A stretch of 10,402 nucleotides of DNA. Source: a virus. The DNA lies in the UHGV virus genome UHGV-0126656. The stretch is one strand, 5' to 3'. Each line of letters begins with the position of its first letter. Position 1 is the first letter of the stretch. Position numbers and translations under genes: made by a program. Below, in pieces: positions 1-10,402 of the stretch. The notes under the pieces were generated by a model. The model saw nothing but the letters and a program-made list of their open reading frames with translations. It was not told the DNA's origin and ran no database searches.

Positions 1-148
1 TTTTGGCGGATCGGTTGTGCCGGTGACGGTGAAATCACTCGCATTTCCTTCCTGAATACGGTAGTTATCAGGCGTGGCGCGGTGTGGCGGGGCGGTGGCG
101 GGAATATATCCGGCTGTGTATCCGGTGAAAGTGAATGGCCTGTATAGC

Positions 149-170
149 AAAAACCCGTCGCGGGGACGGG
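149..170 (-). terminator. Rho-independent terminator downstream of the 222-aa gene
   Basis: On the minus strand, a GC hairpin (stem CCCGTC/GACGGG, 5-nt loop; plus 154..170) is followed by TTTTT (plus AAAAA 149..153), about 24 nt past the stop at 194. Part of conserved motif copy 1. Confidence 0.5.
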
Positions 171-193
171 CTTCGTTTGATGGCGGGTTTTCG

Positions 194-862
194 TTACCCG
201 TTCACATGAATATCCATCCCGGCGCGTCCGTGCTGCGTGATGGTTATCAGGCCATCTTCTTTGAGTTGTTTCAACAATGCCAGAAAAGTATTGCGGCCCG
301 GTGCACCAATAGGCCAGATCGCCTTAATCAGTCCGGCATGATTGACGCCATGTAGCGGCGCGTTTGCCTTCAGATAATCCAGTACAGTGTCAGCCTTAAA
401 GCGTACAGGCTTTTTAAACTCCTTATTCGTACCAGTTACGACCGTTTCATGTGGTTCTGTACCTTTCGTCTTGCCTGCGTCCGGTACGGCGCTTTCCGGT
501 ACTGTTTCAACTTCCTGCGCGGCTTTTGTACTGATTGCCATCAGACGTGCTTCCAGTTCCCGGATCTGTGCGTCCTTGTCTGCAATGATGCCTTTCAGTT
601 CGCTGTTAGCCGCTTCCAGTTCTTCTACGGCCTCGCTAACTTCCCCAGCGTACAGGAAGCCGATAACCCCACGACCGCAATTAAGCTCATTCACGACCTT
701 CACAAAGACCTCCCATTTTGGCGTCTTCTGGCGCTTGAATACGGCCTTTATTTCATCGCTGGCGACACCTAACACCCCAGCCATATTGCTATGGATGTGA
801 CCGCGTTTATCACGGTATTTGTCATCGGCCCGCTGTTGTAGCATTTTGATTAAATCGTTCAT
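194..862 (-). CDS. Hypothetical protein (222 aa), central coiled-coil, possible C-terminal winged-helix-like region
   Basis: The ORF track gives 194..973 from a GTG start, but that extension overlaps the upstream terminator at 974..995. The internal ATG at 860..862 (MNDLIKMLQQ...) has an AAGGGG Shine-Dalgarno 8 nt upstream and is preferred. Heptad-like acidic segment (EVSEAVEELEAANSELKGIIADKDAQIRELEARL). No family recognised. Confidence 0.55.
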   Translation of the reverse strand: MNDLIKMLQQRADDKYRDKRGHIHSNMAGVLGVASDEIKAVFKRQKTPKWEVFVKVVNELNCGRGVIGFLYAGEVSEAVEELEAANSELKGIIADKDAQIRELEARLMAISTKAAQEVETVPESAVPDAGKTKGTEPHETVVTGTNKEFKKPVRFKADTVLDYLKANAPLHGVNHAGLIKAIWPIGAPGRNTFLALLKQLKEDGLITITQHGRAGMDIHVNG

Positions 863-973
863 CCTTTGCCCCTTAATTAATCCAGAAACATTGTAATTAC
901 TCGCTATTGGTACGATAACAGGCGCGGCGGCTGGTGGATAAGTGTAATAGGTGGGAATGTTGACGCAGATCAC

Positions 974-995
974 AAAAACCCGGCGCTGGGCCGGG
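974..995 (-). terminator. Rho-independent terminator after the 62-aa/AlpA-like operon
   Basis: Minus strand: stem CCCGGC/GCCGGG (plus 979..995) followed by TTTTT (plus AAAAA 974..978), 19 nt downstream of the stop at 1014. Confidence 0.6.
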
Positions 996-1013
996 TCTTA
1001 GCAAGTTAGATGA

Positions 1014-1250
1014 TTATTGGTTATCGCTGTCAGAAAGTAGTCCAATTGATTTAAAGAATTTCATCACATCCTGATAGCGATACAAGAAACCTCCGTGCTT
1101 CAGTGCTGGCATTCCCTCAACCGGATCCGGAAAAGGAGTTCCAGCATCTTTCCACTTCCTGACCAGTTTGAAAAATGAGGACTTACTAAGCCCGCCTAAC
1201 ATTTTTTGCACTTGCTCACGATTAATAAGTATTGTTGCTGTCTTATCCAT
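1014..1250 (-). CDS. Small DNA-binding protein, AlpA/Vis (excisionase-like) family candidate (78 aa)
   Basis: Translation has the short HTH layout of phage AlpA/Vis regulators (LGGLSKSSFFKLVRK ... FPDPVEG ... LYRYQDVMKFF). Tightly coupled to the upstream 62-aa gene (19 nt gap). Assignment is by motif resemblance only. Confidence 0.55.
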   Translation of the reverse strand: MDKTATILINREQVQKMLGGLSKSSFFKLVRKWKDAGTPFPDPVEGMPALKHGGFLYRYQDVMKFFKSIGLLSDSDNQ

Positions 1251-1269
1251 TATTTAATCTCCCGTGTGT

Positions 1270-1458
1270 TTATTTTGCGTACATTAAGGTAAACGCTCTT
1301 TTGGCTTTGCTTAGTTCATATTCGCGTTTTTCCATGATTGCCAACAATTCTTGCGCAGTGGCTGGCACGCCCGCTCTTATCAGCGCAATCTTAGTATCCA
1401 TAGCGCACACTCTTTCACGCGCCATATCGAAGATAATTTCCGCTCTATTGTGTGTCAT
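1270..1458 (-). CDS. Hypothetical small protein (62 aa)
   Basis: ATG at 1458 is preceded by a strong Shine-Dalgarno (AAGGAGG, 5 nt spacer). First gene of a two-gene operon ending at the 974..995 terminator. Confidence 0.55.
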   Translation of the reverse strand: MTHNRAEIIFDMARERVCAMDTKIALIRAGVPATAQELLAIMEKREYELSKAKRAFTLMYAK

Positions 1459-1883
1459 AACATCCTCCTTTTAACATTCAATCAATGCACATAACGAACA
1501 TCATGACCATCAGTAAAATCACTTCCCAGCGTTTCATTCTGCACCCAATTTCAGTCCATTTACTGCTGTATTCCTTGTTTCTGGCTTCTTTATACCCAGG
1601 TGGGCGGCGGGAAAACGTGACATAGATCCCGGTTTCGTTAATCGGTACAATTACGTCTGATTTTTGCGAAAATGGATTTATTGCAGTTGTAGTGCCAGCG
1701 GGGATTGTGAGAAAGGCCCGGGTAGGTTGCTAACTGCTTGGGCCTTTGTTTGGCGCGTGTACGTGAAAAATAGAAATTTGGCAGGGTAGTTGTAGGGATT
1801 TTTCGCGTATGGGCGTTTAAGGCGGGAAGGTTAATTCTAACGCGCGATTATAATTAAGAATAATCAATAGCTTATATTAAAGA

Positions 1884-1917
1884 GTGATTGGTCTGTATAG
1901 CAAAACCCGGCGCGGGT
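1884..1917 (-). terminator. Conserved motif copy 2 with weak hairpin and U-run (possible terminator or element boundary)
   Basis: Plus GTGATTGGTCTGTATAGCAAAACCCGGCGCGGG matches 131..164 (GTGAATGGCCTGTATAGCAAAAACCCGTCGCGGG) with 2 mismatches and 1 indel. On the minus strand a short hairpin (5-bp stem, 3-nt loop) is followed by TTTT. Confidence 0.35.
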
Positions 1918-1927
1918 CCTGGTGGAG

Positions 1928-2023
1928 TTAACCAAAGAGCATCAGACAGATCAGCATTGTGATAAAAATTATGGCTTGCCCGATAGCAAATAGCATAAAT
2001 ACCAGGTATATAAGCCTTCTCAT
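1928..2023 (-). CDS. Possible small hydrophobic peptide (31 aa, MRRLIYLVFMLFAIGQAIIFITMLICLMLFG)
   Basis: Internal ATG of ORF 1928..2110 with a weak GGGGAAG Shine-Dalgarno-like sequence about 10 nt upstream. A single predicted transmembrane helix, sitting between the tape-measure stop and the motif-2 terminator. May be a translation artefact of T-rich sequence. Confidence 0.25.
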   Translation of the reverse strand: MRRLIYLVFMLFAIGQAIIFITMLICLMLFG

Positions 2024-2193
2024 TTGTTTTTCTTCCCCAAAAACACAGCAACACGCGAAACAGGTGAAAAACTGCCACGCCAACTCTAACGGCTGCAATA
2101 ATAAGAGCAAGCAAAAAACAATAAATTATGTTAAACACGGTGTGCGACCGTCTTTGAAGGTCCGCCAGTCTATCCCCCTGGCGTGGGATTTGG

Positions 2194-4398
2194 TTAACGC
2201 CGCCGTGGTTGTAACATGCCTCCAGGTCTTTGCGACTCGCGCTGCATCAGGCGCATTGCTGTGTTTTCTATAGTCTGTTGCAACGCTTTTGAGTCGTCTT
2301 CAGTCCAGCCGTTTGTCGCCTGGATGTTGTTTGTTACGTTCAGTGTGATGCCGCCACCACTGCCAACCAGATCGCGGCCCGGTGTAACTCGTCCACCCTC
2401 GCCGGGGATCATGTACTGTTTCCCGCCAGTAGAGGTAAATAACTCAGGGACACCGTGCTCACCAACCCTGTAAAGATTGCCACCGTTAACCGCGCCGCCG
2501 TTGTAGCGACCACCGCCAAACAAGCCAGTAATGCCAGCCATCAAGGCGCTGATAGCTGACATTGCGACCATCGGGGCCGTCCCCATTGTCGCGGTAGCTG
2601 TCGCCGCTGCTGCCGGGGCCATTGATGATGCGATTGATGCGCCTGTTGCCGCTGCTGTTGCCGCTTGTCCGCTCATTGCGCTGGCGCTGGCTGCCTCGCT
2701 TAAGATCATTTGTTTGACGTATTCAGCGCCCATCTCAGCGATACTTCCCACCACTTTTCCGAGAATGGTAGTCCCGATATTGGCGAAAGCGGTTTCCAGG
2801 TTCTGCGTACCATTAAGCAGGCCGACAACGGCATTTGTAGCGCCACCACTCAGGCCATCAGCCATGTCACCAATCAGGCCATTAATCCCACCTTGCGCCC
2901 GGAATTGTTCCCACTGCGAGGCAAGCAATTCTTCTGCGTGCTGTTGTTTAAGCGCGTTTAGCGTTTCCTCGTTAATCATCTGTTTGTTGAATAGCTCATC
3001 AGCCTGTTGCATTTCAAGGGCATGGCGTTGTTTGAGCGCATCAACGGGATTAAATTGCTCATTAAGCTGTTTTGCTTTTTCTTCCAGTTCGATTTGATGC
3101 TCACGCGCGGCGTTTGTTTCGTAAATCAGGTGCGCAAGGTTTTTCATCTCACTAACCTGTTTTGCCGTTGCGTTAGCGCCCATTTCCTGAACGGCGTCCC
3201 ACATTTCAGCCTCTTTGCTACCCTCAGCAAAGCCCTGGTTAAGTCGTTCCAGTTCTGCGCGTTTCCGTTTCAGCGCTTCTTCTGCCGGATCTTTCTGCGC
3301 GCGTTTCGGTTTATTGCCACCTCCACCGCCATTGTCTTTCAGCTTAATATCAGTGGTGGCCTGCTGTGTCGGTAGCGTTGACACAAAACCCGTAGATTGA
3401 TTGTCTGGCGCTGCGCCTAAGAAGTCGGTTTGTTTGGCTTGAGCGCGGAATAAATCAAGGCCCGGCACAAACGGCTCAAAGGCTGCGGCAAGTGTCCATA
3501 ACTTATCAGCCAATGACGCAGAATCAGATTTCAGCGTTTTAAACCAGCCGGATAGCTCGCGGCAATAATCAGCCAGCGTTTTAATACCGCGACCGACCAG
3601 TTCAGTAACATGCAGCGTCTGGTCGATGGTTTCCAGTAACAGGCTAAAATTTGTTGATAGCTCTGTCATTGCCTGTTCCGTGGTTGTCGGCAGCTTGTTA
3701 AATTCTTTTTCGATTTCGCCTGATCCTTTCAGGATTGCATTTACTACATCCTCAGCCGTCAGTTTGCCATCCAACATGCGGCGACGTAGCTCACCCATTG
3801 AGATCCCCATCTGACTTGCTACGCGCCGCCATAGCTCCGGCATACCCTCCAGGATGCTGTTAAATTCCTCAGCACGGACAATACCGCCGTTAATAGATTG
3901 CCCTAACTGTCGCAAGGCGTTTGCGGCTTCTTCGGATGAACTACCACCAATACGCCCGATCTGCTGTAGTGTCTCTGTCAACTGTAAGATCTGGCCCCCG
4001 GTAGCGTTTGCATCAGACAAAGCTGAAGTAAGGCTTTCCCATAACTTAGTAGTATCCTCAATCTTCATGCCAGTTCGCTTGCTGATCTCAAGAATGCCGC
4101 TAAAATTAGCCTTAGCTTCAACCAGACTACCGGATAGCCGGGATACACGGGCGCGTAGTAGTTTTACGTTGTCCGCGATTTCAATAAAGCGTTTAGCCGC
4201 CATCATTAGCAGGCCAACGTTAACCGCCGCCGCCAGTTTGCTGATTGTCGTATTCAGTTTGTTGATTGAGTTATCAGCGCGCTTTGCGCCGCGTTCAATG
4301 CGATCGAATGCGTCGTCAGCTTGTTTCCCTGCGGTTAATAGCTTCCCTGTGCGCGCATCAACCTCATAATAAATTCTACCTACGTTTGTGTTACTCAT
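2194..4398 (-). CDS. Phage tail tape-measure-like protein (734 aa)
   Basis: Long, mostly helical protein with an N-terminal region typical of tape-measure domains (GMPELWRRVASQMGISMGELRRRMLDGKLTAEDVVNAI), a Gly run (GGGGGNKPKR), a coiled-coil middle, a C-terminal Ala/Gly/Thr/Ser-rich hydrophobic stretch and a Gly-rich tail (LYRVGEHGVPELFTSTGGKQYMIPGEGG). Classification is by resemblance; no search was run. Confidence 0.75.
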   Translation of the reverse strand: MSNTNVGRIYYEVDARTGKLLTAGKQADDAFDRIERGAKRADNSINKLNTTISKLAAAVNVGLLMMAAKRFIEIADNVKLLRARVSRLSGSLVEAKANFSGILEISKRTGMKIEDTTKLWESLTSALSDANATGGQILQLTETLQQIGRIGGSSSEEAANALRQLGQSINGGIVRAEEFNSILEGMPELWRRVASQMGISMGELRRRMLDGKLTAEDVVNAILKGSGEIEKEFNKLPTTTEQAMTELSTNFSLLLETIDQTLHVTELVGRGIKTLADYCRELSGWFKTLKSDSASLADKLWTLAAAFEPFVPGLDLFRAQAKQTDFLGAAPDNQSTGFVSTLPTQQATTDIKLKDNGGGGGNKPKRAQKDPAEEALKRKRAELERLNQGFAEGSKEAEMWDAVQEMGANATAKQVSEMKNLAHLIYETNAAREHQIELEEKAKQLNEQFNPVDALKQRHALEMQQADELFNKQMINEETLNALKQQHAEELLASQWEQFRAQGGINGLIGDMADGLSGGATNAVVGLLNGTQNLETAFANIGTTILGKVVGSIAEMGAEYVKQMILSEAASASAMSGQAATAAATGASIASSMAPAAAATATATMGTAPMVAMSAISALMAGITGLFGGGRYNGGAVNGGNLYRVGEHGVPELFTSTGGKQYMIPGEGGRVTPGRDLVGSGGGITLNVTNNIQATNGWTEDDSKALQQTIENTAMRLMQRESQRPGGMLQPRRR

Positions 4399-4640
4399 GT
4401 CCTGTATATCCGCGTTGTGCGGATACCTCCGATTGTTCTTTACTCTAATAATTCCGCCATGAAACAGTTTATTGCCGCTTCAGTGACTTCGTGTTCAGGT
4501 TTGCTTCAACCAATCACAAAAAACATCGTTTAATAGAATCAATGGCTTATAAAGCTGTATCAGCTATGCTTCTTTGTCAAAGCCACTGAAAATCAAGTTT
4601 TCCCAATGAAATCAATGCTGATATACATCCATATCGTTTT

Positions 4641-4657
4641 TAACGTAATGTACGTTA
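4641..4657. promoter_or_regulatory. Perfect 7-3-7 palindrome TAACGTA-ATG-TACGTTA (candidate operator)
   Basis: Read directly in the 290 bp gap between the 76-aa gene and the tape-measure-like gene; shape fits a dimeric HTH regulator binding site. Confidence 0.35.
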
Positions 4658-4687
4658 TGCGCACTGCGGGAAACGTACTGGATTTAT

Positions 4688-4918
4688 TTACTGGTCGCCG
4701 TTCAGTTCATGCAGAGTCTGTTCTGGCAATGAATCCAGCCAGTTTTCTGCATCCTCCCTGTAACACTCCAGGATGCAACGGTTTGTGAAGTTGATGAAAG
4801 CGGTCAGTGATTCTGCTTCGTAGTTCCTGTGCGCTCTTCTGGCCTGCTTACGTAGTTGTTTCGCTTCTGCCCGCTGGCCTTCGAGTATCTCCAGCCTGTC
4901 TGCAATATCTTGCTTCAT
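4688..4918 (-). CDS. Hypothetical small protein (76 aa)
   Basis: ATG at 4918 with a GAGGAG Shine-Dalgarno 6 nt upstream; 38 nt from the stop of the upstream gene. Charged, helical; no family recognised. Confidence 0.55.
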   Translation of the reverse strand: MKQDIADRLEILEGQRAEAKQLRKQARRAHRNYEAESLTAFINFTNRCILECYREDAENWLDSLPEQTLHELNGDQ

Positions 4919-4956
4919 GTTCAGCTCCTCGCGCGCGCATAGTACTTGTCCGAAAA

Positions 4957-5331
4957 TTAATCGCCCGTCCCATCATTAATATCGATTCCCACGCTGTGCA
5001 ACTGGCTATGAATGTCTCTGCGAATGAGAATTAAACGCCTGATGAACTCCATTTCCTCCGCGATCTGGTTGCTCGGCCCCGATTTCATGTCGATGATTTT
5101 ATTGATAGTTCCAAGCGAATATTCAGCCCACAGACGAAGCGTTTGGCGCTTCATGGCCTGTTTGCTCAGTGGCGAATGTTTCAGGTCTAAGACATGTTCT
5201 GCGAGGGTCTTAGCGATGCCCTGCATGATGCGTAGTGCCAACATGATGATTTTCTCCGGACTTGTGCTAATATAGTTCCCGAACATTGTTCCGAGACTGC
5301 TTATCCTGTTTGTCTTGTCCGATTTGTTCAT
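4957..5331 (-). CDS. Hypothetical protein (124 aa)
   Basis: ORF in the operon on the same strand; ATG at 5331 with a weak Shine-Dalgarno, preceded by an intergenic hairpin at 5350..5369. No family recognised. Confidence 0.5.
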   Translation of the reverse strand: MNKSDKTNRISSLGTMFGNYISTSPEKIIMLALRIMQGIAKTLAEHVLDLKHSPLSKQAMKRQTLRLWAEYSLGTINKIIDMKSGPSNQIAEEMEFIRRLILIRRDIHSQLHSVGIDINDGTGD

Positions 5332-5382
5332 TGGTCACATTGTTAAGTCAGCCGGGGTAATTCCCGGCTTTCTTTTATCCGA

Positions 5383-5925
5383 TCAGTACCGAATCCCTAT
5401 CGCATTGAATACGCGTTTCCGTTGCTCAGCTTCAGGATCGGCGGCCATTTCTGGTTCTGGCTCCGGCATAGACGGGGCGGCATCAAAATGCTCAATTTCA
5501 CGACCGAAATACGAGTTCAGGACAATACCTGCCGAACTATCCACTCCATCAAAATAGCGACGCTGTTCCTCGGTGAGACAGCTACCCAGACGTTCCTCAA
5601 CCTGCGCCATAAACTCAGCATCCGGTGAGAAGTACTCATCCGGAGTCGGAGCACCGCTCTGTTTGTGCATCTCCATTTTCTCTGCGTTCGTTTTCAGCCC
5701 GGCAATGCGTTTCTCCAGTCCGGCGGCTTTAATAGCGTCAGCAACGATTTGTGGGATCTGCGGTTTAATTGTTTCGATAACTTCATTGCTGATTAATTTA
5801 AACTGGGCCATACGGATCGCTTTAATCTGCTTATTTAACAGTGCGCGTTCCCCTTCGTTGGCGGTTTTATCACGCTGTGCTACCAGTTCATCGCCTTTGT
5901 TTGTCAGTACATCAAATGCGTCCAT
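5383..5925 (-). CDS. Hypothetical acidic protein (180 aa)
   Basis: ATG at 5925 with a GGAGGAG Shine-Dalgarno and 8 nt spacer; starts 17 nt after the stop of the upstream gene. Acidic, Pro/Glu-rich C-terminal segment (MPEPEPEMAADPEAEQ). A tail assembly chaperone or scaffold-like role is speculation only. Confidence 0.6.
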   Translation of the reverse strand: MDAFDVLTNKGDELVAQRDKTANEGERALLNKQIKAIRMAQFKLISNEVIETIKPQIPQIVADAIKAAGLEKRIAGLKTNAEKMEMHKQSGAPTPDEYFSPDAEFMAQVEERLGSCLTEEQRRYFDGVDSSAGIVLNSYFGREIEHFDAAPSMPEPEPEMAADPEAEQRKRVFNAIGIRY

Positions 5926-5942
5926 TGTCTTTTCTCCTCCGA

Positions 5943-6269
5943 TTATTTAAAAGTGCTTATTGACACGCCGAAACGACGACTTAATTCAAAAAGGAGTCGC
6001 GCCTTTGCAGTGCCTTCCATGTCTTCCGGCATTTCAGACTGAAGTTTATCAGCTACTTCATCAACAAGTGGCCGAACCGTTTCCACGAACTTGTCCGCAA
6101 TATAATCAGCAGAACGCATCACTTTTTCCTGGAATTCCTCACGGCGTTCCTGGGCGGCTGATTTAGGGGCTGTCGTGCGCTGAAAATAACTGTCTAATGA
6201 ATGCATGGCATCTGCTCCTTTTACTTTGATTGATGTTATTTCTTTAATTGTGTTTGCTTTGATTTTCAT
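5943..6269 (-). CDS. Hypothetical small protein (108 aa; alternative 87-aa form starting at 6206)
   Basis: ORF directly downstream of alpA on the same strand. The internal ATG at 6204..6206 has the better Shine-Dalgarno (AAGGAG, 8 nt spacer), so the true start may be 6206. Confidence 0.55.
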   Translation of the reverse strand: MKIKANTIKEITSIKVKGADAMHSLDSYFQRTTAPKSAAQERREEFQEKVMRSADYIADKFVETVRPLVDEVADKLQSEMPEDMEGTAKARLLFELSRRFGVSISTFK

Positions 6270-6345
6270 GCTGCCTATTCCTTCAGAAATTGCGGTAGCT
6301 AGCTTTTTAAATCAATAGGTTATTTGATAATCTCAGTAGCTGTTT

Positions 6346-6537
6346 TCATTGGTGGCGAGCGCCTTTGTTTTTATAGAATTCCAAAATCTCAGATCGGATA
6401 AACTTAATTCGTGCACCGACCGGAGTAACCGGAACGGGCCAACCTTTAATCTTGTTAATCCAGCGGAATATAGTGCGTCGGGTAACGCCGAATAAAGCGG
6501 CTACCTCGTTCACCGTCATTAATTCGCTATCATTCAT
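6346..6537 (-). CDS. alpA: AlpA-family prophage regulatory protein / excisionase-like HTH (63 aa)
   Basis: Translation MTVNEVAALFGVTRRTIFRWI... is a typical AlpA/Xis-type helix-turn-helix. GAGGTGA Shine-Dalgarno 4 nt before the ATG. Sits where AlpA-like regulators are usually found in P4-integrase islands. Confidence 0.8.
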   Translation of the reverse strand: MNDSELMTVNEVAALFGVTRRTIFRWINKIKGWPVPVTPVGARIKFIRSEILEFYKNKGARHQ

Positions 6538-6556
6538 GTTCTCACCTCAAAAAGTA

Positions 6557-6590
6557 GCGGTGAGGAAAAATATGGGAAAACCCTCACCGC
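6557..6590 (-). promoter_or_regulatory. alpA leader stem-loop (9-bp stem) with U-run, overlapping anti-SD/SD logic
   Basis: Minus strand reads GCGGUGAGG-16 nt loop-CCUCACCGC-UACUUUUU, then the SD GAGGUGAG and AUG. The CCUCACC arm can pair with either the upstream arm or the alpA Shine-Dalgarno. Confidence 0.35.
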
Positions 6591-6729
6591 GCCCTGAATG
6601 AAATTAAAGACCAACATTACTGTTGATACTTAATATTATATTCCTCATGTCCCTGTTTCACATCTTTTACCATATAGGGAAAGGGGATATTCTGTAATGT
6701 TTACAAAACTTTTAATTAGCAAAAAATAA

Positions 6730-6758
6730 TTGCGCATCTCACGTAATACAGGGATAAT
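6730..6758 (+). promoter_or_regulatory. Candidate sigma70 promoter (TTGCGC-17 nt-GATAAT)
   Basis: -35-like TTGCGC (6730..6735) and -10 GATAAT (6753..6758) with 17 nt spacing, pointing toward the plus-strand terminator at 6825..6851. Confidence 0.3.
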
Positions 6759-6764
6759 ATTACT

Positions 6765-6851
6765 CAAGGGCTGGTAACCCTTACTCAAAATGTGATCTAT
6801 AACTACAACGATTGATTTCACTTCCCCGCTCTCTCCGGCGGGATTTTTTTT
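6765..6851 (+). ncRNA. Candidate small RNA (~85 nt), divergent from alpA
   Basis: Bounded by the candidate promoter and a strong intrinsic terminator. No ORF (ATG TGA only). Has a 5-prime stem-loop (AAGGG-CUGGUAA-CCCUU) and an AU-rich linker before the terminator. Confidence 0.3.
6825..6851 (+). terminator. Rho-independent terminator (plus strand)
   Basis: GC hairpin (CCCGC ... GCGGG, 6825..6842) followed by eight T (6844..6851). No plus-strand CDS lies upstream. Confidence 0.6.
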
Positions 6852-7971
6852 GCCTGCAATCACCACATCAAAACTAATTAAAATTAGATGCCGTTTAAAC
6901 GCAATATAACGCATTCTGACGGCCTTAATTTTTGGCAATGCATTTGCTCAGGTGTGATTAGATTGATTCGTCTGGCGTGGAATGGTGCGGCGGTAATATC
7001 AGATCTCAGCGTTCTGTGTGGCGATTCCTCAGCTCTGAGGAGTGGGCGTCCGTCATTCAGTCTCAGCACCTTGCTCAAACGAGATCGGCTGCGATGGCGT
7101 TGTAGGCCGCATTCTGTCGTTTAATGAGACGTGCCTGATTGGACAATCTGAAATCTGGTTGGTGAGACTATTCAGGCGAGACTGTTCAGCGGGGAAAGCG
7201 GCGCATGTCGATGAATCCATTCCTGGATTAATCGGCGTTGTTCCGGTGTCTGGTGAAAATTTAATGAAATCGCATCAATTATAATGCGTCTAAATCGCTC
7301 TGTGGCGACGTGAAGTTTTCAGGTAAGCAAGTGCGGTTATATGTGTTCATCGCGTTACAGGCACCATTCCGTTCGAATTTGGCACGGTCAGGATGGTTTG
7401 CGGTGGTCGGCGGCGGGGATAAACTTGCTTGAGTGGTCACCTCAGCCTGCTGTGCGTCGTGTGATGGTACTGTCTGCACCTGGCTATACGCTGCTTTGCT
7501 GCTGTTTCCTGTCTGGTCTGTATACGCGATAAAACCCATCGGCTTTACAGTGAGTGAGTTTTTTGCGCTTTGCTTTCCATTCGGTTTGCTTACTGCTGCT
7601 GTGTGTCTGTGCGGTAGCTCAGAAAGCTGTTGACGATAACCATCACTGCTAAGCCCGTCTTTTAAGCTGGCAATTGCTCGAAGCCTTCCGAAGGCCCACC
7701 AATAAGAAATCACCCTTTGAGATATACCGCGCTCCCCATGAACGAATGCCATGATGGTTTGTTGGTCTGCTGTTCAGGTTGTACGTGAGTGAATGGGCGT
7801 TTCCAGCTTGCTGGAAATGATTGCGCTAATCAGCATGGTTAATGCTCGCAACCAGCCGACCTATCAGGCGGCGAAATAATTCTTCTGTTTAACTCTAGGC
7901 GACTCTCTATGACCGACCGGGAGGCTAAAAAACTCCCGTCGCCTAGAATTCTTAATAGTAGAATTCTTACT

Positions 7972-8082
7972 CGGCAACTTTTGACCCACCCTAACGGCAA
8001 CTTTTGACCCACCAATAACGGCAACTTTTGACCCACCTGAAGGCATAAATTGACCCACCCTAACGGCAACTTTTTACCCACC
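7972..8082. repeat. Iteron array (about 5 direct repeats, 23-24 bp period), putative replication origin
   Basis: AACGGCAACTTTTGACCCACC repeats beginning 7972, 7993, 8017 and 8062, with a degenerate copy at 8041..8059. Flanked at 7944..7969 by two TAGAATTCTTA repeats and at 7918..7938 by a hairpin. Lies just downstream of the Rep-like gene and its terminator. Confidence 0.7.
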
Positions 8083-8102
8083 TGAATTCATGGAATTAAG
8101 GC

Positions 8103-8129
8103 AAAGAAAAGGCGGGAACATTGCCCGCC
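8103..8129 (-). terminator. Rho-independent terminator after the Rep-like gene
   Basis: Minus strand: hairpin GGCGGG/CCCGCC (plus 8111..8129) followed by TTTTCTTT (plus 8103..8110), immediately after the stop at 8138. Confidence 0.5.
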
Positions 8130-8137
8130 TGATTCCG

Positions 8138-8665
8138 TTATTTCATGTTGTACGGCTTGAATAATAACTGGTATTCGTTGCACTCCCTTTCTGCCGATCC
8201 TGGTATATAGCCTTCAGTACGCTCAACAAGTTTGAAGTGGTTGACCAGACGATCGAGGCATTTTTTAACCGTGTTTTTTGATAGCCTGGCTCGTTTGTCG
8301 ATTGTTCCCCTACCAACCCTGCACCATCCCAACGGTGAGTTTTTGCCAGTACCAGCGAAGTAACAAAGAGCACGTAGCACAGCCTCGTCGTTGACTGTAT
8401 GTTCTTTCTCCCATCTTTCGTACAGTTTGCGGGGCAATACTTCATCAAGTCGGTTCAATGTGTCCAGGTAGCGCAGGTTGCCACGCCAGGCTTGCTCCTG
8501 CTGTTTTGCCTCGTGATGATCTGTTTCCTCGTGATTATCTGGCGTGTGTTCTTCGTGTTTAGTCTCTTCGTTTTTGGGTGCTTTATTCCGTAACTCGTTA
8601 ATTTTATTTAAAAATTGACGAACATCATTGTTTGTTTCTTGTTCTACTGCTAGCATATCAGACAT
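8138..8665 (-). CDS. Putative iteron-binding replication initiator, winged-helix (phage O N-terminal-like), 175 aa
   Basis: The ORF track starts at 8779, but the ATG at 8663..8665 (MSDMLAVEQ...) has an AAGGAG Shine-Dalgarno 8 nt upstream and is preferred. C-terminal segment (AVLRALCYFAGTGKNSPLGWCRVGRGTIDKRARLSKNTVKKCLDRLVNHF) resembles winged-HTH replication initiator domains; acidic His/Glu-rich N-terminal region. Function inferred from fold-like motif plus the adjacent iterons. Confidence 0.5.
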   Translation of the reverse strand: MSDMLAVEQETNNDVRQFLNKINELRNKAPKNEETKHEEHTPDNHEETDHHEAKQQEQAWRGNLRYLDTLNRLDEVLPRKLYERWEKEHTVNDEAVLRALCYFAGTGKNSPLGWCRVGRGTIDKRARLSKNTVKKCLDRLVNHFKLVERTEGYIPGSAERECNEYQLLFKPYNMK

Positions 8666-8839
8666 GAGAAATTCTCCTTTAGCTTGTTTCTCATACCGCC
8701 CCCGGAATGTTGCAGCATGCCGGGGGCTTTTATTTGTGTTGATCCTATTTTCGAACTCTGGATCTTTCGTTGCAAACATGGATTTAAGTTCTTGATATTG
8801 AATAATTTATTCCACTTAATTGGAATAATGGAATAATTA

Positions 8840-8969: not shown

Positions 8970-10178
8970 TCATTCCGGTTCTAGAGGATTGCCGTTACCT
9001 GCCAATATTGAATCAATAGCGTCGGCGTAATCCTGCATCATTGCTCGCCGTTGCTTCAGGTAGGCCGCCTGGTTATAAATCGCCCTGATTCCCTTTGGAA
9101 CATGGGCCAATTGGATTTCGACCCAATCAGGGTTATACCTGCCGGATTCGTTAAGCGCCGTGCTGAATGTTGTGCGCCAGCCGTGGCCTGTAACCGTCGA
9201 TTTGAATCCGATACGCTCCAGGGCTTTAAGGATGGCACTGGCTGAAAGTGGCTTATCCATGAATCGACCAGGGAACACAAAAGCACTGTATCCGCTGCGG
9301 GTAAACTGGTCCTGTAATAGCTCGACCGCCTGCCGGGATAGCGGGACCACATGCGGGCGGCGGGCCTTCATGACTTCAGCGGGTAGGGTGATGGTTGCCG
9401 ATTCCAGATCTACCCACTCCCAGCGCATTAAACGCAGTTCTGCGGTCCTTAGGGCGCTTAATATAAGCAAACGTATTGCCGTCTGAATCTGAACGCTCCC
9501 GGCTCTCTCAAGGGCTTTGTAGAAGGCCGGGATTTCACTAATTTGCAGCCATGCGTTATGACCTGGGCGTCTGGCTTTCAATGCCGTGTCCAGATCTGCA
9601 ACCGGATTTCTGCTAACCAGTTCGGTGATAACGGCAAATTTGAAGATCTCCCCGATACGCTGGCGTAATTTCCTGGCCTGTTCCGGTGCGGTGCGCTCTT
9701 TCTTCTGAAGCAATGCCAGTACGTCACGGGCGGTTATATCAACGATTGAACGTTTTCCCAGCACGGTGTAAACATCTTTCTCTAGTGCCGATCTGACCTG
9801 CTTTGTATAGCTCTCACTCCAACCGCTCACTCTGGTAGCAAACCAGTCTTCCGCTACCGTCTTAAAACTTGCCGCCATGTTGAGCGCATCAATGGCTTTC
9901 TCCTTGCGCGCTTCTTCCATTGGGTCAATTCCCTGGGCGATGAGTAAACGGCTCTCTGTGGCGCGTTTACGTGCTTCCTTCAAGGTAATCAGCGGATATA
10001 CCCCAATAGCCTGTAACCGCTCTTTCTTGTCTATCCAGTACCGGAATCGCCAGTATTTGCTGCCATTGGGATGCACCAGCAAGAACAGGCCAGGTGTCTG
10101 TGAATCGGTGAGTTTGTAGGGCTTGTCCTTCGGCTGGGCGGCCTCTATGCCCTTTGCTGTCAGTGGTGTCTTGCTCAA
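8970..10178 (-). CDS. int: Tyrosine recombinase, P4-type phage integrase (402 aa)
   Basis: N-terminal arm-binding signature (PYKLTDSQTPGLFLLVHPNGSKYWRFRYW) and C-terminal catalytic region (HGWRTTFSTALNESG ... VEIQLAHVPKGIRAIYNQAAYLKQRRAMMQDYAD) characteristic of P4-family integrases. Start codon is TTG at 10176..10178 with a GAGGT Shine-Dalgarno 8 nt upstream. Confidence 0.9.
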   Translation of the reverse strand: MSKTPLTAKGIEAAQPKDKPYKLTDSQTPGLFLLVHPNGSKYWRFRYWIDKKERLQAIGVYPLITLKEARKRATESRLLIAQGIDPMEEARKEKAIDALNMAASFKTVAEDWFATRVSGWSESYTKQVRSALEKDVYTVLGKRSIVDITARDVLALLQKKERTAPEQARKLRQRIGEIFKFAVITELVSRNPVADLDTALKARRPGHNAWLQISEIPAFYKALERAGSVQIQTAIRLLILSALRTAELRLMRWEWVDLESATITLPAEVMKARRPHVVPLSRQAVELLQDQFTRSGYSAFVFPGRFMDKPLSASAILKALERIGFKSTVTGHGWRTTFSTALNESGRYNPDWVEIQLAHVPKGIRAIYNQAAYLKQRRAMMQDYADAIDSILAGNGNPLEPE

Positions 10179-10366
10179 AACCGGATACCTCGATCTAACG
10201 ACTCGATAACCCCGCTCATGTATCCGGCGCGTTCGGTTGCGTTCGGCAGGATAAGTAACGGGCGTATTAAGGGGAACACCTTACAGCACAAGGGCTAACG
10301 ATGAAATAGAATTGTTCGAATGCTGGAAGAAATGTTACTCATCACTTCTTCCTGAGGGAACGACTT

Positions 10367-10402
10367 ATGAAACTAAAGACCACATTGTTCGGCAATGTAT
10401 AT
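10367..10402 (+). CDS. Partial CDS, 5-prime end only (MKLKTTLFGNVY...), unknown product
   Basis: ATG at 10367 preceded by a GAGGGAA Shine-Dalgarno with 6 nt spacer; ORF runs off the window. Divergent from int. Confidence 0.35.
   Translation, partial: MKLKTTLFGNVY

Follow-up and report, generated by a model that had tools for sequence, protein, structure and literature searches.

Which site does the integrase of this element recombine, and does the repeat-rich leader of its gene belong to that site? The window analysed here, by which we mean the whole stretch of 10,402 nt, had been read in an earlier note as carrying candidate arm or att sites at positions 10179-10366, directly upstream of a TTG-initiated int gene. 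We found that the window is a complete island of 10.3 kb with approximately 50 nt of bacterial flank on each side. Taking the evidence below together, we think it likely that positions 10179-10366 are the integrase-proximal arm and the core of a CPZ-55-family attachment site with arm sites for the integrase IntZ.

The window starts with the last 55 nt of eutA and closes with the first 36 nt of eutB. The features at the two junctions, and the sequences obtained by joining them, are as follows.

1-55, plus strand: 3' end of eutA (...SLAFPS, followed by the stop TGA at 53-55), identical to the empty-site strain L001 and to L002 and L003.
48-55, plus strand: core repeat CTTCCTGA at the int-distal junction, including the eutA stop codon; the repeat is present once in the empty site and once at each island end.
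10348-10355, plus strand: core repeat CTTCCTGA at the int-proximal junction; empty-site genomes align to the window from 10348 onward only.
10356-10402, plus strand: eutA-eutB spacer, eutB ribosome-binding site and eutB start (ATG 10367-10369), identical to the empty site.
Rejoined empty-site sequence: ...CATTTCCTTCCTGAGGGAACG...
Circle-junction sequence: ...CATCACTTCTTCCTGAATACGGTAG...

The query was matched in 5372 of 5426 complete E. coli genomes, in most of them over window positions 10348-10402 only, and the int leader was contiguous with eutB in 408 of the 5426 (about 7.5%). In the empty site of L001, the stop codon of eutA is separated from the eutB start by a spacer of 11 nt (...TCACTCGCATTTCCTTCCTGAGGGAACGACTTATG), and this stretch, read as ...CATTTCCTTCCTGAGGGAACGACTTATG, contains a single copy of CTTCCTGA. 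In L002 and L003, eutB is annotated at the equivalent position. The left junction consists of bacterial sequence up to the core and the right junction of island sequence up to the core, which places strand exchange within the 8 bp. Both the eutA stop and the eutB ribosome-binding site were left intact by the insertion. The published CPZ-55 site lies between eutA and eutB and has an 8-bp duplication, TCAGGAAG (PMC6379469); in the window, too, the insertion lies between the eutA stop and eutB and is flanked by the TCAGGAAG repeat. The island interrupts the chromosome at the eutA stop codon, immediately before eutB. This is the CPZ-55 target, and integration site and core alike had been published previously.

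The integration target, regarded as unknown in the earlier note, can therefore be named, because the window includes both junctions: it is the eutA stop and the eutA-eutB spacer. The observation that no tRNA was visible was correct; ARAGORN found neither tRNA nor tmRNA in the window, and there is no tRNA at the target. A tRNA or tmRNA target was discarded, given that ARAGORN and Rfam returned no match in the window and that the junctions lie in eutA and eutB. The earlier note had also proposed a comparison with an unoccupied site, and this comparison bore it out: the junction at 10348-10355 falls inside the flagged interval, which reaches the att core and the eutB ribosome-binding site, and lies 100-170 bp from the repeats, as expected for arm sites. 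The junction expected of an excised circle, attP (TCATCNNTTCTTCCTGANTNCNGTA), had no match in viral contigs, and the seven matches in metagenome contigs were unrelated sequences without arm similarity. Contiguous attP was likewise absent from the 5426 complete E. coli genomes. Excision of CPZ-55 in K-12 occurs at low frequency (PMC3105296).

Two other loci illustrate what can happen at this site. In L014 (NZ_CP121151.1, locus 1-20000), the eutB island is longer than 20 kb and carries two further site-specific integrase genes, a DUF3800 gene and an abortive-infection family gene, so that nested elements build up at the eutB site. In L020 (NZ_LT883142.1, approximately 12560-12600), a deletion fuses the second GCGTTCGG unit of the arm to an identical GCGTTCGG within eutB. 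With it go the att core and the 5' end of eutB, a gene annotated as shortened in this strain. The deletion looks like a microhomology event that would lock the island in place and inactivate eutB.

The gene next to the repeats encodes the only recombinase among the scanned ORFs.

8970-10178, minus strand: intZ-type tyrosine integrase of 402 aa, starting at TTG 10178-10176, recognized by its domains and by 91% amino-acid identity to K-12 IntZ over the full length.

Near-identical loci are annotated intZ. The protein consists of the Arm-DNA-bind_3 (PF13356, residues 6-93, 2e-24), Phage_int_M (PF22022, 105-198) and Phage_integrase (PF00589, 210-373) domains. R244, K271, H332, R335, H359 and Y368 were invariant in an alignment with HK620 Int and two relatives, and from family motifs we take these columns to be the catalytic R-K-H-R-H-Y set. 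A protein search with IntZ yielded a tight E. coli clade and a group at 66-72% identity, followed by a gap down to 45%. Among species-representative genomes there was only the K-12 type (91%), all other integrases being less than 50% identical, which we judged too distant for comparison of sites. No phage with the same integrase and a contiguous attP was found, the best phage integrase being 43% identical.

The assignment of the int start to TTG in the earlier note holds. TTG 10178-10176 is the first canonical start after the in-frame stop, and a Shine-Dalgarno sequence, GAGG, lies at 10191-10188, 9 nt upstream. The next in-frame canonical start, as read by eye, is about 32 codons downstream and would delete the arm-binding domain, so TTG is the sole canonical start that retains it. 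RefSeq gives the same int start in L002 and K-12, and L029 has ATG at precisely this position. In L016 and L019, the start codon is TTA (locus 20029 in L016), and RefSeq has moved the start to an ATA 45 nt upstream, giving a protein of 416 aa. These copies may be inactive; the TTA probably reflects either integrase-defective copies or an annotation artefact.

The islands available for comparison form a mosaic family, and no complete genome holds at least 80% of the window. Two integrase variants next to eutB, L029 and L030, have an Int that is 66-67% identical; the L030 contig ends at the eutB start, and only the int-side copies of the motif described below are visible in these two. The most divergent variant, L031, extends past the 10-kb flank, which leaves its left arm outside the comparison. 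L032 (NZ_CP024245.1, strain B4103-1, 3866-14143) carries the cargo of window positions 131-7692 at 92.6% identity and is inserted in ychJ. It encodes a different, unrelated tyrosine integrase of 388 aa and an AlpA-type protein nearly identical to the HTH_17 protein of the window, and recombination modules have been swapped between L032 and the window element. The int-proximal arm of L032 has two copies of TTCATCCC at the int start, followed by two copies of GGAACAA with 10-bp spacing, a heptamer-plus-tandem layout that mirrors that of the window. The repeated heptamer of L032 itself, TCATCCC, is present at the int start and in the distal arm.

We then examined the repeats themselves. The coordinates given earlier for the inverted repeat and the tandem were exact, by the sequence and by a repeat finder: CCGGATAC at 10181-10188 and GTATCCGG at 10220-10227 are perfect inverted copies of 8 nt, separated by 31 nt. 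An 8-bp inverted repeat arises in about 16% of shuffles of 10179-10366, so this repeat by itself is not beyond chance. It becomes convincing because its heptamer, TATCCGG, is enriched in the window, because two copies are located at the far end of the island, and because all four arm copies are invariant. TATCCGG occurs six times in the window compared with 0.98 expected, and none of 200 shuffles reached six. The consensus RTATCCGGY is present in two copies per arm, as an inverted pair on the int side and as a direct pair on the int-distal side.

10181-10188, minus strand: R1, a candidate arm-type site that reads GTATCCGG in the sense of int, about -167 relative to the core centre.
10220-10227, plus strand: R2, a candidate arm-type site with the sequence GTATCCGG, about -128 relative to the core centre, invariant in all variants.
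106-113, plus strand: L1, a candidate arm-type site with the sequence ATATCCGG, about +58 relative to the core centre; its heptamer, 107-113, is invariant in eight of eight variants.
118-125, plus strand: L2, a candidate arm-type site with the sequence GTATCCGG, about +70 relative to the core centre, invariant in eight of eight variants (heptamer 119-125).

Across eight to nine variants including K-12, none of 28 motif columns varied, versus 93 of 226 other arm columns (Fisher p = 1e-6); the arms outside the motif were 34-42% variable across island variants. R1, which sits between the Shine-Dalgarno GAGG and the TTG start, was invariant in all ten E. coli variants and is also present in L029 and L030. 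Its conservation by itself could instead reflect its position in the ribosome-binding region. In L029 and L030 the arm is heavily diverged, yet GGTATCCGGTT and CCGGATA are retained, the heptamer of R2 being kept. TATCCGG is absent from the arms of L032, which has the same cargo with a different integrase, and the homology of L032 to the window begins at 131, just inside L2. The motif is kept with IntZ and missing from the L032 arms, indicating that it belongs to the IntZ module. Both arms thus carry a short motif that is unrelated to the core and lies tens to about 170 bp away from it, as in an att site, and from the pattern of conservation and the arm-binding domain of IntZ we infer that the four RTATCCGGY copies are very probably IntZ arm-type sites. 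The earlier proposal that the repeats are arm-type or Xis sites is therefore strengthened for the inverted repeat, whose predicted sites occupy both arms, are invariant and are specific to IntZ; for the tandem, an Xis role is only plausible. This arm-site set is the kind of feature to be expected here. It appears not to have been described previously in the searchable literature, in which no IntZ binding studies were found.

Several other sequences near the arms were considered. TATCCTG at 10247-10253 was rejected as a third int-side copy, having one mismatch and not being conserved, and TATCAGG at 66-72, if it has any role, more likely belongs to a core-type site, being 11 bp away from the core. 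The remaining TATCCGG copies, at 3548 and 4130, are inside the tape-measure gene and were treated as chance occurrences; L002, whose tape-measure-region gene is largely unrelated (9% of the window protein matches), has a single internal copy, and this copy is at neither of the corresponding positions. The exact IHF consensus, WATCARNNNNTTR, was found in neither arm, and a one-mismatch IHF site at 10196-10208 was set aside, as it varies between variants. The int-distal arm contains one further set of repeats.

74-102, plus strand: phased G-rich repeats, GTGGCGC at 74-80 and GTGGCGGG at 84-91 and 95-102.

These lie between the core and the left arm sites with 10-11-bp spacing, and the variants keep only a degenerate GTGG periodicity. 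A binding region for a host factor or an excisionase is possible.

Could the repeats serve something other than the integrase? The TATCCGG copies might be operators for another DNA-binding protein of the island, for example an HTH protein, that regulates int and the terminal genes. The island does encode several HTH proteins, and the inverted pair R1/R2 adjoins the int start; however, the half-sites are 31 bp apart, which is far for a dimeric operator, and the other pair is a direct repeat in non-coding DNA beside the core at the opposite end of the island. Moreover, L032 has nearly the same HTH_17 protein and cargo but arms without TATCCGG, while the motif survives in K-12, where most of the cargo including the HTH_17 gene is gone. 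We regard operators as quite unlikely, because the motif tracks the integrase and not the cargo. The inverted repeat might also act as RNA, with a leader hairpin formed by CCGGAUAC and GUAUCCGG sequestering the Shine-Dalgarno sequence, and a 14-codon upstream ORF possibly coupling translation. The 63-nt leader can indeed be folded with the arms paired (-17.2 kcal/mol), and the upstream ORF, from ATG 10219-10217 to TGA 10177-10175, overlaps the int TTG as TTTTGA. Yet the fold is no better than those of shuffled sequences (z = -0.82 for 63 nt and -1.9 for 151 nt), the arms do not pair with each other in the 151-nt fold, and they never vary, hence offer no compensatory changes. An RNA role would also leave the two far-end copies unexplained, and the leader matches no Rfam family; altogether we consider it very unlikely. 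The upstream ORF (10175-10219, minus strand) reads MSGVIESLDRGIRF. Its stop position is moved by a 1-bp deletion in L017, and its peptide is unlikely to matter, because all four K-12 substitutions, as read from the alignment, alter the amino acid.

A different origin of the junctions, in which a transposition-like event brought in the island, with CTTCCTGA as the duplicated target site and the int-side repeats irrelevant to insertion, is hardly credible. It would account for the 8-bp direct repeat that flanks the element, and the CPZ-55 repeat has been worded as a target duplication (PMC6379469). The scanned ORFs, however, contain no transposase family, the sole recombinase being a tyrosine integrase with an arm-binding domain, and the island ends are not inverted repeats (local alignment score 5 versus a shuffle mean of 5.8). 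The absence of terminal inverted repeats and of a transposase identifies CTTCCTGA as the crossover core of a tyrosine recombinase and not as a transposon footprint. The same int-side junction is present in the 408 genomes although the islands are mosaic, with int-proximal arms 81-99% identical to that of the window. In addition, 14 of 21 positions, read by eye, agree between the eutA 3' end and the island side of the core, which is expected if the eutA end and the island side are both core-type half-sites. IntZ arm sites around a tyrosine-recombinase core remain the reading that we prefer for the inverted repeat and its far-end counterparts.

The second repeat of the leader, the tandem, is less easily assigned. 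It abuts R2 on the core side, and the candidate protein for it is encoded within the cargo.

10229-10246, plus strand: tandem GCGTTCGG-TT-GCGTTCGG with a 10-bp period (units at 10229-10236 and 10239-10246), candidate excisionase (RDF) site.
6346-6537, minus strand: 63-aa protein of the HTH_17/excisionase family, candidate recombination directionality factor.

The 63-aa protein matched Pfam HTH_17 (4.4e-09) and the PHROG family 'excisionase and transcriptional regulator' (2.9e-09), and its score for the NCBIfam 'excise' domain, 26.4 bits, was under the cut-off of 28.8. Its gene is present in every variant examined except K-12. In KplE1/HK620, TorI binds GTTCG-type pentamers in blocks that are 2 nt apart (PMC2951348). 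Comparison with the HK620 sequence revealed that the tandem has this phased GTTCG layout, with the pentamer on the opposite strand relative to int. The 63-aa protein itself is no TorI homologue (BLASTP against HK620 HkaC/TorI, E = 0.10).

An excisionase site, most simply for the 63-aa protein, is a tentative reading of the tandem that we would not call probable, and we place it level with an inherited duplication or a leader element. In the latter case, the tandem would be a neutral 10-bp duplication or a part of the int promoter or leader, with no role in recombination directionality. Some of the observations fit such a neutral origin: K-12 has a single GCGTTCGG unit, L029 and L030 lack the tandem though they keep R1 and R2, the int-distal arm contains no copy, and an 8-bp tandem at an offset of 8-12 arises in about 1% of shuffles of 10179-10366, so that an ancestral duplication inherited by related variants would look conserved. 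Others argue for a function. The tandem is identical in eight of nine close variants, although of the columns that separate it from the core 40% are variable. Variants with the tandem have two alleles of the HTH_17 protein, about 50% identical overall, that share the HTH recognition segment (R/K)RTI(F/L)RW, whereas this segment is PQTLRRW in the 66%-identity lineage without the tandem; K-12 has lost both one repeat unit and the HTH_17 gene. This co-presence across lineages is suggestive, the lineages being few. In lambda, the Xis sites abut P2, and here the tandem adjoins an arm site in the same manner. The 10-bp phasing of the GTTCG pentamers is that of TorI sites, and L032 has the comparable GGAACAA pair beside its own repeated heptamer.

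In the mechanism that we propose, the N-terminal Arm-DNA-bind_3 domain of IntZ would bind R1, R2, L1 and L2, and the core-binding and catalytic domains would act on the CTTCCTGA core. The bent arms would bridge to the core and form an intasome for integration (attP x attB) and for excision, as in lambda. An excisionase-like protein, if bound beside R2, would bias the reaction towards excision, and bound IntZ would hold int expression down, as for IntS of KplE1. The core is located 170 bp upstream of the int start, with R1, R2 and the tandem all between them. IntZ is expected to limit int expression because the leader consists entirely of att-arm DNA and R1 falls between the Shine-Dalgarno sequence and the start codon. 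Both the int promoter and this autoregulation are what we infer from the layout, and the autoregulation is the weakest step of the mechanism, because no promoter was identified. At the threshold of the scan, no sigma-70 promoter was detected in 10000-10402 on either strand, and the weak candidates picked by hand for an int promoter and for an outward eutB promoter were unconvincing.

At the int-distal end, just inside the left arm sites, a structure was found that may bear on transcription across the junction.

149-170, plus-strand scan match: GC-rich hairpin with stem 154-170, preceded by an A-run and followed by a T-rich stretch.

On the minus strand, TTTTTGCT comes directly after the stem. 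In K-12, L015 and L017, the stem carries a compensatory change from T:A to G:C. The hairpin is likely a bidirectional terminator, and on the plus strand it would block eut-operon transcription entering the island, which fits the loss of eutB induction reported for K-12 strains (PMC7617246).

The cargo between the two arms, 194-8779, has all its predicted genes on one strand, and one of them is of particular note.

2194-4398, minus strand: tape-measure homologue of 734 aa (TMP_3, 9.6e-54; PHROG tape-measure families down to 1e-128).

A scan of 17 ORFs revealed no capsid, portal or terminase family and no further tail family, PADLOC matched no defence system in the cargo, and Rfam families had no matches in the window. 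The 10-12-kb variants (L015, L016, L017, L019 and L032) keep a tape-measure gene of 730-790 aa and add an HNH endonuclease and a small-terminase-like gene. In L018 and L020, at approximately 2700-6700, IS1, murI-like and gadC-like genes and a decarboxylase pseudogene replace the tape-measure region; chromosomal-type genes have been captured by these islands. By its gene content, the island looks more like a phage satellite than a decayed prophage; tape-measure genes are unmentioned in the phage-satellite literature that we retrieved. One could go further and place the island in an undescribed family of phage satellites of about 10-12 kb, whose cargo (an excisionase-like HTH protein, an HNH endonuclease, in some members the small-terminase-like gene, and the tape-measure homologue) swaps recombination modules, the leader and arm controlling active excision as a reversible eut switch. 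We consider this larger reading improbable. If it were true, excision would rejoin eutA and eutB and restore ethanolamine use.

The eutA-eutB junction is a recognized prophage hot spot, and with the insertion, K-12 strains no longer induce eutB or form microcompartments (PMC7617246, PMC6652756). The map of the recombination site presented here, in which a candidate excisionase site and four arm sites predicted for IntZ are placed around the core, allows the design of clean excision or curing of such islands, and it allows one to ask whether carriers recover ethanolamine use through excision. With it, IntZ could be added to the integrases that have a defined attP; the understanding of site-specific recombination is unchanged. 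The cargo of the island is more unusual than its attachment arm.

Among known systems, the closest is CPZ-55 of K-12 (intZ, yffL-yffS), and the window island is a member of the CPZ-55 family. The two share the insertion point, the 8-bp repeat, the four TATCCGG copies and the IntZ type, and the yffL-like gene is 99% identical to that of the window. The K-12 copy differs in that it is 6.8 kb long, is missing most of the cargo, the tape-measure and HTH_17 genes included, and has one GCGTTCGG unit in an int-proximal arm that is about 81-87% identical. The gene content of K-12 yffL-yffS is accordingly not that of the window: an 80-aa gene (81%) and one fragment match are all that correspond, apart from the yffL-like gene. 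P4 Int/Vis is more distant. The integrase belongs to the same broad domain family as CP4-like integrases, judging from solved N-domain entries, and no P4-type replication or capsid-size genes were detected among the scanned ORFs of the window. P4 targets a tRNA gene and has a longer core. Both Int and Vis reportedly repress P4 int (Piazzolla et al. 2006).

KplE1 (CPS-53)/HK620 provides the nearest parallel for the leader. There, as here, int lies beside the core and is read away from it, so that the leader is att-arm DNA, and the HK620 core is about 160 bp from the int start compared with about 170 bp here. IntS-type integrases are the best phage matches to IntZ (41-43% identity), and the RDF sites, with their 10-bp-phased GTTCG-type pentamers, resemble the tandem. 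On the other hand, KplE1/HK620 targets the tRNA gene argW with a 16-bp core, whereas the island has an 8-bp core and sits where a protein gene ends; the motif in the arms of KplE1/HK620 contains TAAA instead of TATCCGG; and its RDF, TorI, has no detectable relation to the HTH_17 protein and recognizes pentamers of the opposite orientation with respect to int. The att arm over the int leader is thus shared, and the TorI-family RDF and the argW target are not. Autoregulation of int has been demonstrated in KplE1, where the int promoter and the att arm overlap and where int is repressed by IntS and TorI (PMC2951348); here it would follow from the layout.

Lambda attP consists of P1, P2, X1/X2, the core and P'1-P'3. 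The attachment site of the island is alike in having predicted arm sites on both sides of a short core for a heterobivalent integrase; in lambda and here, two or three sites follow one another in tandem at about +55 to +80 on one arm, and on the other arm two sites stand apart, farther out than -100. The island also has three integrase domains, the presumed catalytic set, and the core at both junctions and in the empty site. The direct repeat abuts the inner of the separated sites, where lambda has its Xis sites. The differences are that int lies beside the arm with the separated sites, whereas lambda int is beside the P' arm, that there is no exact IHF consensus, that the N-domain is of the DUF4102 type (Arm-DNA-bind_3), and that the sequences are unrelated. 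The overall extent is about 240 bp in lambda (PMC4880445) and about -171 to +74 here. The layout of this attachment site is an ordinary lambda-style one and not a new mechanism.
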